Below the pieces are notes generated by a model. The model searched no databases and was not told the DNA's origin. It saw nothing but the letters and a program-made list of their open reading frames with translations. A stretch of 64,000 nucleotides of DNA, from the IMG/VR virus record IMGVR_UViG_3300037067_019009, positions 32,001 to 96,000 of that record; one strand, 5' to 3'. Position 1 is the first letter of the stretch. Each line of letters starts with the position of its first letter. The DNA is from a virus (lineage: Duplodnaviria; Caudoviricetes). The position numbers were made by a program, and so were the translations under genes. Positions 2,986 through 62,666 of the stretch are shown here, piece by piece.

Positions 2986-3252
2986 TTACTTCTCCTTCTC
3001 GGTCACCAGTGGACGATCAAGAATATCATAAGATTCCTCTTTACCGAGTGCCTCCTGAGCCTTCTCGAAATATATGTCTACACGCGTCTGCACATCGTCA
3101 GGCATAGCATCGGTATCCTCAAACATAGTATCCCAGAACTCCACAACGTAGTTATCTAGTGCCTCATAAGCCAATTCATGAGTAGTATAGACGCTTGCAT
3201 CGATTCCATCATCGTTGGAAATCATCAAAACGTAAACAGTTTTACTCTCCAA
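2986..3252 (-). CDS. hypothetical acidic protein
   Basis: packed minus-strand ORF with AAGGAG RBS. Confidence 0.65.
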   Translation of the reverse strand: MESKTVYVLMISNDDGIDASVYTTHELAYEALDNYVVEFWDTMFEDTDAMPDDVQTRVDIYFEKAQEALGKEESYDILDRPLVTEKEK

Positions 3253-3257
3253 TAGCG

Positions 3258-3473
3258 TTACTCCTTTACTAACCCGAATGAGAAGTCTATATACTCCCAG
3301 CCTCCATCTGGCTCCTCATCCCAATCTATCCTAGGGTCTGTAGTTTGTATACTAAACGTTTTAAGTCTCTCTTCAAACTCCTCCACTGTCCCAGCGAATG
3401 TACCATACAAGGTAATATCACCGGTATCGGTATAATATGATTTCTCTACTCTTACTACCTTACTCACCCCCAC
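3258..3473 (-). CDS. hypothetical protein
   Basis: packed minus-strand ORF. Confidence 0.6.
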   Translation of the reverse strand: MGVSKVVRVEKSYYTDTGDITLYGTFAGTVEEFEERLKTFSIQTTDPRIDWDEEPDGGWEYIDFSFGLVKE

Positions 3474-3491
3474 TTCTAAAGTATCAGCTAC

Positions 3492-4250
3492 TCAAATATT
3501 GCGCTGGTCCTCCGAAATGTAATCGTTAACATAGTCAGCGAATTTCCCGCTCAGCCTTTGGCTATCAATAAAAGCACACGCTATTTCTAAGAGGTAGGTA
3601 TCGTATACATAGCAGCCTTCCAATTTGGTTAGCATATCCCATGATGGTCTAGCGATGCCAGACACATCGCTATTACACACCGTTTTAGTAGAGAGGTTAT
3701 CTATAATTTCCTTGCTAGCTTTAATAGCCTCATCTATACCCTCGAATCCCCACTGGGAATCCTCCTCGCAGCCTTCTTCATCCTCAATAACATAGCCGTA
3801 CACTTCCCCGTTTACCCATTTAGAATACTGGCGTATTTCTTCTACTAATAGCTTCTTAACTTTAGCCTTTAGCTCGGCGGCTATGTATGTAACGTCATAC
3901 TCCCTTGCGACATCTTCTCTAGTTGCAAGTATAAAACCCACTCTTCCCGAATCCCATGGACATGGAAACCCAGTAGTATTGAACATAACTCCACCATGCT
4001 CGTACTTGTACACTGGCACATATTCGCATTCAGGGTAGTCTTCCATGACCGCCGCGTCTAGTTCATTCCACCTAGAGTATTCTTTAGGGTTGTAATTAGT
4101 GGCAGTCTCACTAATCTCAGTAACTCCATGCTTACCGAAGATTACTAACTTTCCGAGATTATCCCACTCTCTCGGGCTTTCAGCCAAGTCATCTATGAAT
4201 ATTTTTATAGTGTATTTTTTGTAACTCAACTTTTCCAAATAGTCTGTCAT
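3492..4250 (-). CDS. conserved phage hypothetical protein
   Basis: SPREWDNLG / YxHGG / CPWDSGRVG / GEVYGY motifs typical of a phage/MGE family. Confidence 0.7.
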   Translation of the reverse strand: MTDYLEKLSYKKYTIKIFIDDLAESPREWDNLGKLVIFGKHGVTEISETATNYNPKEYSRWNELDAAVMEDYPECEYVPVYKYEHGGVMFNTTGFPCPWDSGRVGFILATREDVAREYDVTYIAAELKAKVKKLLVEEIRQYSKWVNGEVYGYVIEDEEGCEEDSQWGFEGIDEAIKASKEIIDNLSTKTVCNSDVSGIARPSWDMLTKLEGCYVYDTYLLEIACAFIDSQRLSGKFADYVNDYISEDQRNI

Positions 4251-53900: not shown

Positions 53901-54122
53901 TCACTTCTTCGCGACGACAGCGAGCTTAAGCACACTGCCTATACAGCCGATAAGCCAAAAACCGGCGTAAGTTACCCAATAGGTAATCTCCTTACCACCA
54001 AAATAAGGAATAACCACATTCCATAAAAACATGATGACCCCAGATATGAGAAACCCCCAGACGATAGCCGCCACCAGCAGGCCTGCTATTGCTCCTACGA
54101 TAGCACTAATACTTCTTTTTAT
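53901..54122 (-). CDS. 2-TM membrane protein with apparent ATA start (73 aa)
   Basis: GGAGGTG RBS, ATA overlapping the upstream TAA; KRSISAIVGAIAGLLVAAIVWGF...WNVVIP..G..ITYW. Confidence 0.6.
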   Translation of the reverse strand: MKRSISAIVGAIAGLLVAAIVWGFLISGVIMFLWNVVIPYFGGKEITYWVTYAGFWLIGCIGSVLKLAVVAKK

Positions 54123-54625
54123 TTGATCACCTCCCTCACCAGCGCAAATAAGGCCATAAAAATCACTACCATGAACGCAGATGGTTCCGGCGTTACATAT
54201 GTAACAGCTAACTGCATACTGGGACTAGCAGCCACGGAGTTTTTACCGTTATGTAACTGCCACCCCGGGCCCGCGCCGGTAATCATAGCTTCGTGCATCC
54301 ATAGGCCCGATACATAAACGTCCACTTGCCCCAATCCTACGAAGCAGATACTATTCCAGACATAGGAACGGTAGTCTAGTGGAGCTACATAATCGGCCAA
54401 ATAATATCCGACTGGCCCTGTAGAGCTATCCTTATATAGAGCTACATCCCACCCAGGCAATGCAGGTAGATCAGTGCAACTGTCATATCCATCGGTAGAA
54501 CATGGAAAGCTGCGAAGCAGCAGCGTTGATGATCTATAATTGAACTCAAAATACACATCGCTCCATGCGTCATGCATGCAAGAACCCAGTATTACCAAAA
54601 ATATCATTACGAACAGCGTCTTCAT
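54119..54625 (-). CDS. secreted PEP-CTERM protein
   Basis: signal peptide; C-terminal VTPEPSA + TM helix + basic tail (REVIK). Confidence 0.8.
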   Translation of the reverse strand: MKTLFVMIFLVILGSCMHDAWSDVYFEFNYRSSTLLLRSFPCSTDGYDSCTDLPALPGWDVALYKDSSTGPVGYYLADYVAPLDYRSYVWNSICFVGLGQVDVYVSGLWMHEAMITGAGPGWQLHNGKNSVAASPSMQLAVTYVTPEPSAFMVVIFMALFALVREVIK

Positions 54626-54637
54626 ATATCTTAGCCC

Positions 54638-55618
54638 CTATGTATTATAGGCAAGCGAGCCTTTGTATTCTAATATAGATTTCCACGCGTACTTAGCGAC
54701 AGCCGCATTCGTAGCCTCATCGCCAATCTTCAGTTCTGGCGGTATCGGCCACTCGAAAAGGTCCTCCATAAGGATTTCCAATTCCTCACTGGGTTCCGAG
54801 GCTATCTGCCATATAAGCAGATCCATATTCATATAACTTTGCCCAAGGAAGACAAAGTCTTCTGGATTAGTCTTGAAATCCCACTTCACCACACTCTTAT
54901 TCTCTTTAGGCTTATCGGCTGCATGCTTAGTGTCTTTGCTACTCGTAGCCTCTGCAGTAGCAGTCTTTGCCGGAATTGAAGAAACGCCAGACTCAGCGTG
55001 ATAAGTAGAGTAATCTTTTACATTCTCATCGAAGGTCTTAGACATCATTGCCGTCACGCTGGGGGGCGTCTGCACATCGATGAACCAAGACACGTCTTCT
55101 ATCTTCACTCCAGCATCATAAAGGTAAATAGTTGATGACATCGCATTCGTCACCCTAGAGACTATAGAATGAATAAAGAGCGGACCGGTCTCGTCCGTAA
55201 ATATAGCCAGCATCTCCAGATCGTCTTTAGTAGGGGCAAGACTATGATCAGAGTGTATAGTCACCAGCATCTTGAGCATATCAGGCGTAGTGCCAGACGG
55301 AAGCTGCTTCATGAACGAGGATATATCCACATCCGATACTGAGGCACTCTGGTACTTCCTCGTTTGCGGAAATAGAAACAAATCTTTGACATATATATCC
55401 CCACCCACGACCTCTACTGACCCAAGCATACCAACAACACTCTTGGTCACAAGTTCAACAATAGCGTTCAGCTTGCCGTAAGCTAACGGAGACATATAAA
55501 TAACTGGAAGTTCGGTGAGCAGTTTCACCCTGGGCCCATAGCCAGACGGCAGTATAGAATTAGCTGGTTGAACCGGGGGCTCCTTCTCAGAACTATAAGA
55601 ATAACCACCATTCGACAT
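54638..55618 (-). CDS. degenerate (MPN-minus) JAB-domain protein
   Basis: colinear with JAB 60338-61192, but the HSH motif reads TIH and the catalytic Glu is absent. Confidence 0.7.
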   Translation of the reverse strand: MSNGGYSYSSEKEPPVQPANSILPSGYGPRVKLLTELPVIYMSPLAYGKLNAIVELVTKSVVGMLGSVEVVGGDIYVKDLFLFPQTRKYQSASVSDVDISSFMKQLPSGTTPDMLKMLVTIHSDHSLAPTKDDLEMLAIFTDETGPLFIHSIVSRVTNAMSSTIYLYDAGVKIEDVSWFIDVQTPPSVTAMMSKTFDENVKDYSTYHAESGVSSIPAKTATAEATSSKDTKHAADKPKENKSVVKWDFKTNPEDFVFLGQSYMNMDLLIWQIASEPSEELEILMEDLFEWPIPPELKIGDEATNAAVAKYAWKSILEYKGSLAYNT

Positions 55619-55623
55619 TTAAA

Positions 55624-56481
55624 TTACCTCACTACTAGAAGTTTTGGCTCCGGGCTGGTAGTATCCTTGGCCCTAGAGAACTCCTCCTCAAATAACTCAT
55701 AGTATTCTTTACGCAAATAGGAGAGTACGGCCTTCTTCACGGCATGTACTTTCGCCGTGGCCGTCTTCCCATCTATTTCCAACTCCGCCGCCACGTCAGA
55801 CGCACGGCAGTCCTGGCCCATGATAGCCGCCACTACTTGTAGTTCCTCTGGAAGGTGGCTGATAGCCTCATAAATCGCTGCCGCCTTAGCACGGTCGACA
55901 CAAATATCATGGATATCCGGCCCCTCCTCTATGGGCTGTTGGGCGCTCGACTTGGTTTGTATCTGGTCCGGAGTGGCTAACGTAAGTGCGGAGTACTTCA
56001 CGGCAAACTCATCCGTGGCCATACCCATATAACCGGCCAGCTCAGCACAGGTAGGTGGTCTTCCGAGCCTCTGATGTAGTATAGCCGCCGTACCAGCGAT
56101 ATCAGCCTCCATCTTTTTCGCCATCCCCTGGCGGCGCTTCCCAAGCAGCCCCCAGAACTCAGAACGCCGCTGCCCGATAGCTCTCCGCAGCACGCCTATG
56201 ACGAAGTTTTTAGCACTGGAGTACTTGTTGGAAGGCAGAGTGTCTACCGCTTTCGATAGTGTTGCCACCGCCGCCTGCGTTAGATCCTTACGCGTTATAT
56301 CATGCGCAGCCACTACAGCAGCCCGCTGGATGGATACTTCTATATAAGGAGCAGCCTCCTCTAAGAACTTGAGCTTGCTGGCGCGTGCTGTTTCGATGTC
56401 TCCCGAATCCCTTGCGCATATGAAAGCTTCTAGTGCATTATCCAACTTACCACCCAACTCATTACTACCTAACTTAGACAT
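55624..56481 (-). CDS. divergent sigma-70 family (FliA/SigB-like) sigma factor
   Basis: region 2 DLTQAA...L.KAVD; region 3 LHQRLGRPPT.AELA..MG; region 4 AISHLPE...DVAAELE. Confidence 0.75.
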   Translation of the reverse strand: MSKLGSNELGGKLDNALEAFICARDSGDIETARASKLKFLEEAAPYIEVSIQRAAVVAAHDITRKDLTQAAVATLSKAVDTLPSNKYSSAKNFVIGVLRRAIGQRRSEFWGLLGKRRQGMAKKMEADIAGTAAILHQRLGRPPTCAELAGYMGMATDEFAVKYSALTLATPDQIQTKSSAQQPIEEGPDIHDICVDRAKAAAIYEAISHLPEELQVVAAIMGQDCRASDVAAELEIDGKTATAKVHAVKKAVLSYLRKEYYELFEEEFSRAKDTTSPEPKLLVVR

Positions 56482-56677
56482 CGCGTAACTCCTTGACCAC
56501 AATGGGTTTCCTGCGTGCAGCCAACGCCGCGGCGTATAGCTTACTAGAACCTGATCTACCGGAGTGAACAAAAACATCAGCGGAAGCTTCCGTAAGTTCT
56601 ATAACCCCAATCTCCTGATCCAGTTCTTCGAGTTGTCTCTCTTCAAGTTCAGTAAGATCTTCAAAAGCTGTCCCCAT
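56474..56677 (-). CDS. small acidic hypothetical protein
   Basis: GGAGG RBS. Confidence 0.55.
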   Translation of the reverse strand: MGTAFEDLTELEERQLEELDQEIGVIELTEASADVFVHSGRSGSSKLYAAALAARRKPIVVKELRDV

Positions 56678-56754: not shown

Positions 56755-57153
56755 CTAAAATGGGTTGCTGACCGCCGCTGGTTCAGGCGCTGGCTCAGAT
56801 TCTACCACTTCTTCAGTCGCAGACCCGGACTTGCGCTTATCGAGGAATGTGACCTCATCAGCAACCACATTTGTGTAGGTGGTCTTCGTCTGCGTAGACG
56901 GATCTGGAACCGTTCTTACCTCTATGCGACCGACAACCGCAACCAGCGAGCCCTTAGCGGTATAGTTGGCCATGTTCTCGGCTGTCTTCCTCCATGCCAT
57001 GCATCGGATGAAGTCAGTTTCCCGTTTGCCATCGACCACGTAATTGCGATCCACGGCTATTGTGAATGGGAGCTTTGCCACTCCACCTTCCGTATAGGAA
57101 AGATCGGGGTCGGCAGTCAGCCTACCTACAAGCACTACGTTATTTAACATCAT
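56755..57153 (-). CDS. ssb: single-stranded DNA-binding protein
   Basis: LNNVVLVGRLTADP, AVDR, ETDFI, KGSLVAVVGRI, C-terminal PF. Confidence 0.96.
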   Translation of the reverse strand: MMLNNVVLVGRLTADPDLSYTEGGVAKLPFTIAVDRNYVVDGKRETDFIRCMAWRKTAENMANYTAKGSLVAVVGRIEVRTVPDPSTQTKTTYTNVVADEVTFLDKRKSGSATEEVVESEPAPEPAAVSNPF

Positions 57154-59317: not shown

Positions 59318-59350
59318 AAGACAAACACCCCCGAACCCACTCGGGGGTGC
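59318..59350 (-). terminator. terminator closing the Ubl operon
   Basis: GCACCCCCGA-GUGGGU-UCGGGGGUGU-UUGUCUU. Confidence 0.65.
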
Positions 59351-59403: not shown

Positions 59404-59619
59404 CTAGCAGGCGCCCTTGACTTTTTTTGCCGCGACGATTGTATCACCATTGCGCACCTGAACCACTTCTTCGTCTGCGACTGGTTCGCCGTTCAGCTTC
59501 AAGTCGTAGCCACCCCAGTCGAATCCGGCTGAGTTCAGCGCGTCCGCGACAGTCATCCCCTCCTCGGGCTCAACGTCGTAGACGGAGTTCTCCGCCCCGA
59601 TTGCAGCGATTGTAATCAT
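59404..59619 (-). CDS. ubiquitin-like (beta-grasp, ThiS/MoaD-like) protein
   Basis: 71 aa; EGMTVADAL...LNGEPV...VRNGDTI...KKVKGAC; GAGGAGG RBS. Confidence 0.88.
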   Translation of the reverse strand: MITIAAIGAENSVYDVEPEEGMTVADALNSAGFDWGGYDLKLNGEPVADEEVVQVRNGDTIVAAKKVKGAC

Positions 59620-59657
59620 AGTTTTTCCTCCTCGTAACATTAGCTAACGTTATAGCC

Positions 59658-60329
59658 TCAGAACTTACTCGAGACTATGAGTGGCGGCGACGCGGAAAGG
59701 AGTAGTTCGTTTTCCACGCTACTCCCTTTGAGCCACCGCATAAGTTGCCATGTGGCATAGCTTACCACAAGAGCAGCAGTAGGGGCTATAGATATTACCG
59801 CCCCACAGGCTGAAGTCTCAGCCTCATCGTCAGAGCATAGCGTTTTTTCCCACGCACTACACTCTGATAGCGAATTAGGATTGAAGGCATAGACACGCCC
59901 AATCATCGCACCCATCCTAGTTTCTATCACCAGTTTGGTTGACACGGACATCTTCAGGGACGATTCATATATCCCTCTACGTCCAGAGTTACCATCCATA
60001 GAATCGATGGCCAGGAAGACTACCTCCCCAAATGTATTGGGGCCTTCTACCTTCTCAAACCTACTCTCTATCTCGACACCCGACCCCCGATAAACCATAT
60101 CCTTAACGGCTTCCACCTTAGGGATCCCGACGTGTTCCAGCATGAACATCTGGTTCGGCAGGTTATGGTCCTCAACAATATCATGGTCCCAGACACGGAT
60201 CTTAGTTGCTCCGACTTTGGCTAACTGCCAACAAAGGCCGGAACCAATAGCGCCTGCCCCCACTACATCGATCCTTACATTGCGGATGAGTGAGGGATTA
60301 AAAACTTCTTGCTGTCGCATGAATTCCAT
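59658..60329 (-). CDS. E1-like ThiF/MoeB adenylyltransferase
   Basis: R near the N-terminus, VVGAGAIGS, WDHDIVEDHNLPNQ, PKVEA, AIDS, ETRMG, putative catalytic SACG. Confidence 0.93.
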   Translation of the reverse strand: MEFMRQQEVFNPSLIRNVRIDVVGAGAIGSGLCWQLAKVGATKIRVWDHDIVEDHNLPNQMFMLEHVGIPKVEAVKDMVYRGSGVEIESRFEKVEGPNTFGEVVFLAIDSMDGNSGRRGIYESSLKMSVSTKLVIETRMGAMIGRVYAFNPNSLSECSAWEKTLCSDDEAETSACGAVISIAPTAALVVSYATWQLMRWLKGSSVENELLLSASPPLIVSSKF

Positions 60330-60337
60330 AAATGCTA

Positions 60338-61192
60338 CTACCTCTTAGGCAATTTCTGCTGGTTAATGACATCTTCTACGCTTTCCGAGTCACCACCAAC
60401 CAGCGGCACCGACGACTGTACTGCCGAACCGGATGGTCGCCCTAACAGCGACCGCACTACATCAGGGCTGAGAGGATCGTCATAACCGTCCTCACCTGGC
60501 TGATAATCAGTATCATCGTACGTAGCTTTACTGCTCCTATTACCATTAAAGTAGCCACCACGATAACTATCAGCTCTGGCTGGAGCCTTCTTAACTTTCT
60601 CGGAGACTTCCTTTGCCAACCCCTCCTTATCTAGCATTTCAGGTAGATAGGGAAACCACCTTACATCTCGGAAAATGAGATTATCCGAGGCCCTGTATAC
60701 TGTCCACTCCATATGCCCTTTCTTGTTGCAGATGAGCCGTATGGAGAATGGCTTACCGGTGGCTATGAACTCCGAAAACGTCTTGCAGTCCTCAGCGCTG
60801 GGGTTGGTAGACATGTCCACATGGCTGTGCCCCCATCCCCTAAGCTTAAGTATTATGTCACGCCCTCCAGGGGTGCTAAGCAGCTCCTCCGCCAAAGCGA
60901 CCTGCCCATCCGTGGTATGCTCCACCTCAGCCGGTCCCGCCTCCTGTCCGACTAGGAAGGCACCGGTTATTATATAATCGGTCCCCGCCTCCTCCACTGA
61001 GCAGTACCATGAAACCTCCTCGTCAGCTAGCTCGACAATGGCTCCCATCTTTACTAAGGCCTCTGGCTTTACGAAGATTCTAGGCGTGTCTCCAGAGTAT
61101 AGAATCTCCGTTTTGGCTTCGTGTGGAATAAACGTGATCGGGTCGTAGTCTACTCTCAACTCTTTCTCCACCTGATTGAATCTAGTCTTCAT
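60338..61192 (-). CDS. JAB/MPN+ metallo-isopeptidase
   Basis: upstream Glu (EEVSW) and HSHVDMSTNPSAED = HxH-x7-S-x2-D. Confidence 0.88.
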   Translation of the reverse strand: MKTRFNQVEKELRVDYDPITFIPHEAKTEILYSGDTPRIFVKPEALVKMGAIVELADEEVSWYCSVEEAGTDYIITGAFLVGQEAGPAEVEHTTDGQVALAEELLSTPGGRDIILKLRGWGHSHVDMSTNPSAEDCKTFSEFIATGKPFSIRLICNKKGHMEWTVYRASDNLIFRDVRWFPYLPEMLDKEGLAKEVSEKVKKAPARADSYRGGYFNGNRSSKATYDDTDYQPGEDGYDDPLSPDVVRSLLGRPSGSAVQSSVPLVGGDSESVEDVINQQKLPKR

Positions 61193-62666
61193 CTTCTTCA
61201 TCTTCTTCGTTTTCCTCTTCGTCCTCTTCATCGTCCTCGTCTTCCGCGTCTAGATCTTCGCCATCCCACTCTATAAGCTCCCCAGTATCAGTGACTCTCG
61301 GCCAGCGATTAACGTACTGCCCGGCATCGTCAGACACATTGACCGACGATAGAAAACTTATCAGTAGAGATACCAGCACCGCGTCCTCTCTGGAAGCCAT
61401 CAGCTCCGAAACGGATATTTCTATATTGCCGAAGCAAGCATCCCCGTCAAGAAAGACATGTGGCGCCTGACATGGACTACTTTGATAAGCTCTGACCTGT
61501 CGATCCTTATTATAGAACCGGATCGGACCCTCATCATAATAATCTATCACTATCGTAAACCGCCCGAGCTCATGTGTATAACCAGTTCTTACGTCCTTTA
61601 CCCTGATGGTGTCGGTATGCACCATTAGGACATCTCCAATATAGAAGGCTGATTTCACTCCAGCTATCCGATGGATCTTATCAATCATCGAAATGGTTCG
61701 GTCGGTACCTTCCAATACTCTCTTATACAGCGAAGCCAGTTCCTTCTCCGCTTGTATTCTGTTCGAGACTATTCGTATATAGCGCTCTTTGCATGACCGT
61801 TCCTCTCTTTTGTGGGCCTCTGCTACCTCTATCGCGTGTTGCACTGAGTAAGACATTCTCTTAGTTTCCAGTGCCTTGAGCCACTCCTCCGAGGGAGCAA
61901 ACATACGCTCACATAACTTCTTGAACAGCTCTAATTTATCTCTCTTCTTTGCCATATGCTCGGCTAAGGCCAGGATAAACTCCATATAAAGGGGTATTAC
62001 CACAGCTGTGGTCCCGCAAAGTAGGTTGAGATGTACCATACACGCATTTTGGTATATATCCGCCACTATATCAGGTTCATCGGAGTCCGAGTCACTCCAG
62101 AGGTGCTCCACACCCTTATCAGTATCCGCGGAAAACGCTCTAGTGTCTTGCGGAATCATGCCCCAGACAGCATTATCAATGATCCTACATGGACGCTGAA
62201 ACACACTGTTACACTCCAAAAGCCCAGTGCCTATATGGACGACAAACTTTCCTCTATGCTGCAGATCGTTCCTCGGAACTGCACATTCCATATTCCAGTT
62301 GGAGATAACTACAGACTGCTCTACAATAGGCGCAAGTATAGCAGACGTCAGCGTTTTCACGACTACTTCTACCGAGTCGGGTAAGCTCCGTGTTATATAT
62401 GTCTCGTACTCCTGGACATCCGCCTCTCCAGCTGAGCTGTTAGGGATCGCTCTATAGTGAGCCCTCACCAGCCTCTCATAATCTGGAATAGGGGTACACT
62501 CTACAAACTCATTGGACGTCGCCACCATAAGTTTTCTCACATCCTCCATAGTGCGCATCAACACCCCATCAGTTGTTGAGCCATCCTCATTACCGATTGA
62601 CCAAAGTAGCCCCTGTAGACCTATCCTCAATACATCGGACTTATCTATTCCCGGCACAAATATCAT
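61182..62666 (-). CDS. coiled-coil protein with C-terminal prokaryotic E2-like (UBC-fold) domain
   Basis: LGRFTIVI...APHVFLDGDACFGN..helix..FL matches the HPH/HPN-x-G-x-C E2 pattern; acidic tail. Confidence 0.72.
   Translation of the reverse strand: MIFVPGIDKSDVLRIGLQGLLWSIGNEDGSTTDGVLMRTMEDVRKLMVATSNEFVECTPIPDYERLVRAHYRAIPNSSAGEADVQEYETYITRSLPDSVEVVVKTLTSAILAPIVEQSVVISNWNMECAVPRNDLQHRGKFVVHIGTGLLECNSVFQRPCRIIDNAVWGMIPQDTRAFSADTDKGVEHLWSDSDSDEPDIVADIYQNACMVHLNLLCGTTAVVIPLYMEFILALAEHMAKKRDKLELFKKLCERMFAPSEEWLKALETKRMSYSVQHAIEVAEAHKREERSCKERYIRIVSNRIQAEKELASLYKRVLEGTDRTISMIDKIHRIAGVKSAFYIGDVLMVHTDTIRVKDVRTGYTHELGRFTIVIDYYDEGPIRFYNKDRQVRAYQSSPCQAPHVFLDGDACFGNIEISVSELMASREDAVLVSLLISFLSSVNVSDDAGQYVNRWPRVTDTGELIEWDGEDLDAEDEDDEEDEEENEEDEEDED

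Follow-up and report, generated by a model that had tools for sequence, protein, structure and literature searches.

A probably peptidase-dead JAB-family protein encoded apart from the ubiquitin-like cassette of a jumbo phage

Does a phage that carries a ubiquitin-like (Ubl) modification cassette also encode a catalytically dead partner for the JAB peptidase of that cassette? The question is raised by a 64,000-nucleotide stretch of DNA (the window), which covers positions 32001-96000 of one virus record of 212,668 bp, a jumbo phage whose DNA is found in groundwater and landfill metagenomes. An initial annotation had described the product of one ORF of the window, here called pseudo-JAB, as a dead paralogue of the phage's JAB and as half of a possible MPN+/MPN- pair, where MPN+ denotes an active JAMM peptidase. 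The minus strand of the window carries, in this order, an E2-like gene (61182-62666; a putative label, with homologues in most operons of the E2-JAB-E1-Ubl family), the active JAB gene (60338-61231, true start perhaps at 61192), a ThiF-type E1 gene (59658-60329; Pfam ThiF, E 9e-21) and the gene of the ubiquitin-like protein (59404-59640, probable start at 59619; NCBIfam ThiS, E 3e-4). Then follow a terminator-like hairpin (59325-59350), located between the Ubl operon and the pseudo-JAB gene, four unknown ORFs, an SSB gene (56755-57153; Pfam SSB, E 4.8e-27), a short ORF, a sigma-70-type factor gene (55624-56577; NCBIfam SigBFG, E 3.4e-6), the pseudo-JAB gene (54638-55618) and a PEP-CTERM-like gene. 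A scan for promoters and terminators was overall at chance level.

The active JAB has all elements of a JAMM peptidase: E72 and the motif H135-x-H137-x7-S145-x2-D148. It keeps 23 of the 26 columns that are at least 80% conserved in the family and 15 of 18 conserved groove residues, and the net charge of its Ins-1 hairpin is -3. The Ubl ends with K-G-A-C, a tail that would have to be trimmed to expose the Gly; by analogy with BilC, which trims Gly-Ala, the active JAB would be the trimming enzyme.

The pseudo-JAB gene is a free-standing ORF of 326 codons with an ATG start. A Shine-Dalgarno sequence (GAGGT, 55626-55630) lies 7 nt upstream of the ATG and overlaps the last codons of the sigma factor gene, whose stop codon precedes the ATG by 5 nt. 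The pseudo-JAB sequence was found in identical form in one long contig, possibly itself the source of the record, and short contigs of low depth from a second study, covering part of the gene, contained no differing letters. This agreement across contigs of two studies makes a sequencing error unlikely. No RNA dataset was listed among those that contain the sequence. Two features of the neighbouring genes deserve mention. At 317 aa, the sigma factor exceeds its counterparts in the two nearest phages (239-240 aa) by about 75 aa, and its sigma-profile scores are weak. The PEP-CTERM-like gene directly downstream (54119-54625) has its own ribosome binding site 13 nt past the pseudo-JAB stop codon; it was seen in neither of the two nearest phages.

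Comparison of the two JAB-like proteins bore out the colinear alignment reported in the initial annotation, and all four quoted motif pairs were present. BLASTP aligned them with 28% identity over 170 aa (E 3e-9), and the Smith-Waterman score was 94, compared with 34 ± 5 (maximum 76) over 2000 shuffles. The pseudo-JAB is the only JAB-like ORF in the whole phage genome besides the active JAB. At the DNA level no similarity is left between the two genes, which indicates that the split is old. Searches of Pfam, NCBIfam, PHROGs and PDB sequences with the single pseudo-JAB sequence gave no match. A profile built from canonical relatives, with the pseudo-JAB itself left out, matched residues 23-202 with 90 bits, and hhalign against the family profile gave 99.5% over 193 columns. 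The match to the JABs of the phage/CPR E2-JAB-E1-Ubl family thus extends over the whole domain. Cassettes with this JAB family occur in phages, CPR bacteria and Melainabacteria, and their JAB gene is usually a neighbour of the E1 gene (within 400 nt in 161 of 171 loci); the pseudo-JAB gene, about 4 kb from E1, does not share this position.

AlphaFold2 modelling of residues 1-215 (116 sequences) resulted in a pLDDT of 90.6, with all helices of the domain predicted. The best match of the model was Rpn11 both with Foldseek (E 2.4e-9, probability 1.00) and with VIA-align (Z 15.5, rmsd 4.4, 149 aligned residues), and the top 39 VIA-align rows were all JAB/MPN-type folds. Further fold matches included Rpn8, CSN6 and Abraxas chains (Z 13.7-14.9), PfJAMM1, BilC (Z 13.6), CsRpn11 (13.4), Cap3 (12.2) and BubCD (10.9), as well as Prp8, eIF3, the ER membrane complex and Npl4. 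In the Atlas, the pseudo-JAB resembles Prok-JAB-labelled and viral clusters with a TM of about 0.8. The MPN fold on which the initial annotation depended is therefore borne out by structure prediction and, judged by its model, the pseudo-JAB is a member of the JAB/MPN superfamily. The MPN/JAB domain, delimited by AlphaFold2, Foldseek, VIA-align and the HMM match, comprises approximately residues 20-202 (55013-55561). It is followed by a linker of low-complexity composition (about residues 203-240, 54899-55012) and a C-terminal region that is acidic and probably helical (about residues 241-326, 54641-54898), for which single-sequence AlphaFold2 gave a pLDDT of 53. No relative of the C-terminal region was found; Atlas TM values were at most 0.55, with no usable feature match. 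A weak match of 50 aa to a repeated stretch of the 964-aa protein P0137 (E 4.7e-4) is probably due to chance.

The catalytic residues were assessed in family alignments. All five are intact in 239/239 non-redundant relatives of the pseudo-JAB and, once E1-anchored loci were added, in 302 of 304 non-redundant family members. The two exceptions are the pseudo-JAB and P0153, an unrelated dead JAB of another two-operon phage. Loci retrieved by the WGHSH pattern are biased toward canonical JABs; the sets free of this bias were the search with the pseudo-JAB itself and the E1-anchored loci, in which 97 of 98 non-redundant JABs were canonical. The catalytic Glu (E72 in the active JAB, E in all 239 relatives) aligns with S60 or V61 of the pseudo-JAB (55436-55441); a one-residue insertion blurs the register at this position, and neither residue is acidic. 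In the degenerate JAMM motif (residues 118-133, 55220-55267) the W-G-H-S-H of the relatives corresponds to L118-V119-T120-I121-H122. The first zinc-binding His is replaced by T120 and the motif Ser by T130, and the second His (H122) and the Asp (D133) are retained. This ungapped register was obtained with MAFFT, HMMER and hhalign. Pairwise BLAST alone gave a different register, in which H122 takes the place of the first His next to a two-residue gap; one His is absent either way. The loss of the first metal-binding His and of the catalytic Glu, noticed in the initial annotation, was thus confirmed, and the pseudo-JAB has neither the Glu nor the H-x-H-x7-S-x2-D motif of an MPN+ protein.

Two of the three metal ligands are kept, and the new D124 and H125 lie nearby; His was found at the positions of H125 and H150 in 0/239 relatives. 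H122 and D133, together with D124, H125 or H150, might bind zinc in a rewired site acting on another substrate, and the residual activity of the E33A mutant of BilC (PMC10557695) can be cited in favour of such a site. No Glu that could serve as general base is found close to the canonical position, and retention of H122 and D133 can be structural; we regard a rewired metalloenzyme as very unlikely.

Is the dead protein maintained, or is it on its way to being lost? The pseudo-JAB keeps 11 of the 26 columns conserved in at least 80% of the family and has changed 15, compared with a family median of 24 kept. By a rough estimate, neutral drift to this divergence should have left about 8.5 stop codons in the domain, and the probability of seeing none would be about 2e-4. 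The reading frame is nevertheless uninterrupted, and hydrophobic character persists in 38 of 43 hydrophobic columns. The losses are not evenly distributed: 4 of 18 conserved residues were kept in the active site and Ins-1, compared with 21 of 35 elsewhere (Fisher P 0.011). A functionless remnant drifting toward loss would fit a singleton that is absent from relatives and sits on one of the longest branches of the family. Such a remnant is highly improbable in view of the open frame, the ribosome binding site, the preserved hydrophobic core and the placement of the losses on the groove. Signs of neutral decay, which would have spoken against the initial annotation, were thus not seen, on the evidence of the frame, the hydrophobic columns and a good ribosome binding site. 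The open frame, the kept core and the groove-placed losses suggest that the scaffold was maintained and that the surface for tag binding and cleavage was released or remodelled. Taken together, it is very probable that the pseudo-JAB is a peptidase-dead MPN protein that is under selection rather than decaying, and is kept for protein binding.

The change of the groove is clearest in Ins-1, the hairpin that grips the C-terminal tail of the tag (PMC6043591), which was located through profile alignment to Rpn11 (residues 85-95, 55334-55366). The E2-JAB-E1-Ubl family combines an acidic Ins-1 with a basic Ubl tail, which ends K-G-[NA]-x and has K or R before the Gly in 99 of 119 cases. The pseudo-JAB has lost both acidic positions of Ins-1 and gained R87 and K88, giving a net charge of +2 in place of the -1 to -3 of most relatives; 3 relatives out of 302 have +2. 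Near the groove, a Met and both conserved Trp residues are replaced as well. These changes weaken the proposal of the initial annotation that the protein is a Ubl 'reader', because the hairpin and the groove are its most altered parts. In a role of this kind the pseudo-JAB would bind the tag, or proteins that carry it, and leave them uncut and protected from the active JAB, or else it would trap a Ubl of host defence. The initial annotation also raised the possibility of a decoy for host JABs. Npl4 is an MPN- protein that binds ubiquitin, and in the pseudo-JAB Ins-1 is still predicted to form a beta-hairpin (strands 86-88 and 91-93) with the near-invariant Q85 retained. Binding of the ubiquitin tail is largely by backbone beta-sheet (PMC6043591), and catalytic-mutant BilC still binds its Ubl (PMC10557695). 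With a net positive hairpin facing a basic family tail, and with the two Trp and the Met gone, we consider a reader or trap quite unlikely, although the charge argument leaves room for a host Ubl with a different tail.

Next we consider whether the pseudo-JAB is a conserved companion of the active JAB. A search of 1.84 billion representatives with the pseudo-JAB returned 155 matches, the best non-self match having 31% identity. No orthologue was found in the 90% clusters, the 50% clusters, metagenome and viral contigs or GenBank phages, the pattern searches for orthologues detecting close relatives only. When 48 related viral records were searched in full, 45 proved to have one JAB and three to have two. 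The two nearest phages in IMG/VR (211 and 217 kb; the only full-length matches to the RecA-like marker) share 55 and 66 reciprocal best hits with this phage, arranged in collinear blocks, and its E1 groups with their E1s (SH-aLRT 89, not starred). Each has a single canonical JAB, in the gene order SSB, sigma, one ORF, JAB, E1, Ubl, E2. In the present phage the dead copy stands behind the SSB-sigma pair, a synteny anchor common to the two nearest phages, and the complete cassette lies just upstream of SSB. In the 217-kb relative a GroES-like gene was noticed by eye inside the Ubl operon, between Ubl and E2 (L074:11515-11817).

Co-occurrence across related phages, by which the initial annotation proposed to check its idea, turned out negative: both nearest phages lack the pseudo-JAB. 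Since an obligate partner would be expected there, an obligate pair of the eukaryotic kind is unsupported. Rpn8, CSN6, Abraxas1/2 and eIF3f resemble the pseudo-JAB in having an MPN fold, a JAMM motif that is not intact and an active paralogue in the same genome. They differ in being conserved obligate partners in large complexes, whereas the pseudo-JAB is a singleton missing from close relatives and derives, by sequence, from the phage/CPR JAB family and not from eukaryotic MPN- proteins. A looser heterodimer, in which the pseudo-JAB binds and activates or restrains the active JAB as Rpn8, CSN6 or Abraxas do, would be in line with the presence of one active and one dead JAB in the same genome, here and in a second phage, with the complete set of predicted helices in the domain, and with the eukaryotic precedent of BRCC36, which needs its MPN- partner (PMC13462971). 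Most of the evidence points the other way. JABs are single in 45 of the 48 viral records, two-JAB genomes mostly have both copies canonical, and neither dead JAB is a relative of the other. The C-terminal tail of the active JAB is low-complexity, judged by composition only, and does not appear to resemble the C-terminal helices used by eukaryotic pairs; the tail of the pseudo-JAB has a low-confidence helical prediction. Complex prediction with active JAB, zinc and the dead domain gave a best score of 0.24 against a mark of 0.32, with controls that did not fold, and speaks neither for nor against a pair. BilC cleaves alone (PMC10557695), and CsRpn11 is active and monomeric in solution (PMC6043591). 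BilC, BubC, Cap3 and CsRpn11 share the fold of the pseudo-JAB, keep E and H-x-H-x7-S-x2-D, work alone and belong to host systems, not to phages. We think it improbable that the pseudo-JAB is the MPN- half of such a heterodimer.

Where did the second copy come from? Positional orthology of the pseudo-JAB with the JABs of the nearest phages fits the synteny, and was rejected by the AU test (p 0.03, with a long-branch caveat). Duplication of the phage's own JAB was not rejected (p 0.18). The best candidate relative is P0009, a JAB from a contig with two cassettes. P0009 and the pseudo-JAB are the only 2 of 318 sequences with a common one-residue insertion, and they also share a Trp-to-Met and an Asn-to-Ser change; the motif spacer of P0009 is one residue short. 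In one tree P0009 was the sister of the pseudo-JAB (98/95), on a very long branch, and the relation was not recovered in a 55-row tree. The longest branches of the JAB family are those of the two dead copies. Several large phages have two cassettes, with JABs that are mostly both canonical. The pseudo-JAB is likely to originate from a second cassette since stripped of its other genes.

The other dead JAB, P0153, belongs to a 188-kb phage (IMGVR_UViG_3300014204_000114). It keeps the Glu, has lost the whole HxH-S motif and has an intact frame; the two copies of it that were found are identical DNA. In its locus (L021:1148-11772, same DNA in L347) one operon contains E2, the dead JAB (3190-3846), E1 and a tandem two-domain Ubl, and a second operon 6 kb away contains E2, an active JAB and E1, without a Ubl of its own. 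The sole Ubl of this phage ends with K-G-A, indicating that the active JAB is needed there. P0153 is like the pseudo-JAB in its JAB family, its intact frame and its occurrence in a large phage with a second, active JAB; unlike the pseudo-JAB, it lies inside an E2-JAB-E1-diUbl operon and retains the Glu. The two proteins are 15% identical, which argues that the two losses were independent; in each case the genome had a JAB to spare. Judged from the sequences, a free-standing dead JAB would have arisen in phages at least twice.

Which protein, then, might the pseudo-JAB bind? Our tentative answer, drawn from analogy, is that it may be a non-obligate adaptor of the phage's own E1 or E2. One cassette would have stayed complete and supplied the trimming, and the other would have lost all genes but the JAB. 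The pseudo-JAB could then use surfaces other than the groove to bind E1 or E2, positioning or dampening them, with the acidic C-terminal region perhaps supplying a second contact. E1 and E2 are suggested as partners because inactive prokaryotic JABs are fused to E2, as in Pycsar-like-4 loci (10.64898/2026.08.12.744502), because the Cap2 linker of Type II CBASS and the N-terminal domain of Atg7 position E2 (10.1101/2022.03.31.486616), and because P0153 was retained between E2 and E1. The recurrence of two-JAB loci in large phages and the general proximity of JAB to E1 genes were also counted in favour of an adaptor. The parallel has limits. The Cap2 linker, the Pycsar-like-4 JAB and the Atg7 domain are, like the pseudo-JAB, non-catalytic JAB-like folds, which position E2 or are predicted to do so. 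They are fused in cis to E2 or E1 in one chain and are anciently diverged (Cap2 and the Atg7 domain stand far down the fold list, Z 5.5-5.7), whereas the pseudo-JAB is free-standing, lies outside the operon and is still 25-30% identical to active JABs. Against an adaptor also speak the distance from E1, beyond the terminator-like hairpin and in the unit of the sigma factor, and the want of orthologues that could indicate which surface is conserved.

The position of the gene allows another explanation, that the pseudo-JAB is uncoupled from the Ubl system and that the partner of its dead fold and acidic tail is some unrelated protein of phage or host, such as sigma. Eukaryotic MPN- domains such as those of Prp8, eIF3f/h and EMC8/9 work outside deubiquitination. 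The gene starts just past the sigma gene with its ribosome binding site inside it and would be co-translated with it, change has been greatest in the groove that faces the Ubl, and the C-terminal region is unique. On the other hand, in the nearest phages the active JAB operon also stands behind SSB-sigma, so being next to sigma may be a matter of inheritance or of an insertion hotspot rather than of function. We rank uncoupling shortly after the adaptor, as possible, if rather doubtful.

Pseudo-JAMMs are already known as subunits of eukaryotic complexes and, in bacteria, as fused domains of E2-E1 proteins. No description of a free-standing phage pseudo-JAMM was found in the literature searched, which was mostly without subscription papers. 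If the pseudo-JAB of our phage binds JAB, E1 or E2, it would provide a small reconstitutable model for the origin of dead JAB partners and would point to a non-catalytic JAB role in an uncharacterised operon family; with some other target it would be one more lineage-specific pseudoenzyme. Its being a singleton in an uncultured phage limits the reach of the finding. A broader reading would be that in large phages with two cassettes the spare JAB has repeatedly become a free-standing pseudo-peptidase, which regulates conjugation by binding the active JAB, E1 or E2. Viruses would then have arrived independently at the MPN+/MPN- or Cap2-linker design, with P0009 as a drifting stage and the pseudo-JAB and P0153 as dead ones. 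We consider this generalization unlikely.

Several observations on related loci were made in passing. The P0009 locus (L345:948-9807, and L350) has its two cassettes split by an IS605-type gene, P0009 being the first JAB. The second Ubl of L345 and L350 ends with I-V-S-N, without Gly, and the second JAB of L350 is broken into pieces of 167 and 82 aa. In the large phages L025/L076, L168, L177, L184 and L291 the JAB domain of the second cassette is part of a protein of 630-870 aa and has a canonical motif of the IWIHTH type. Six Saccharibacteria/CPR loci (L105, L106, L108, L109, L110 and L121) contain a long Ubl-like ORF without the C-terminal Gly motif, and the JABs of L109 and L121 have a seven-residue insertion between the motif Ser and Asp. 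A TROVE/Ro60-like gene accompanies the Ubl cassette, at a distance of about 2-12 kb or less, in this phage (genome positions 104472-106163), in one near relative (L026:15115-16710) and at the end of the P0009 contig (L345). In a 185-kb phage (IMGVR_UViG_3300005936_000001; L167:7103-7357, also L166) the active JAB gene of this family is interrupted within its zinc motif (WGH / SH) by a group I intron (58.9 bits to Rfam RF00028).
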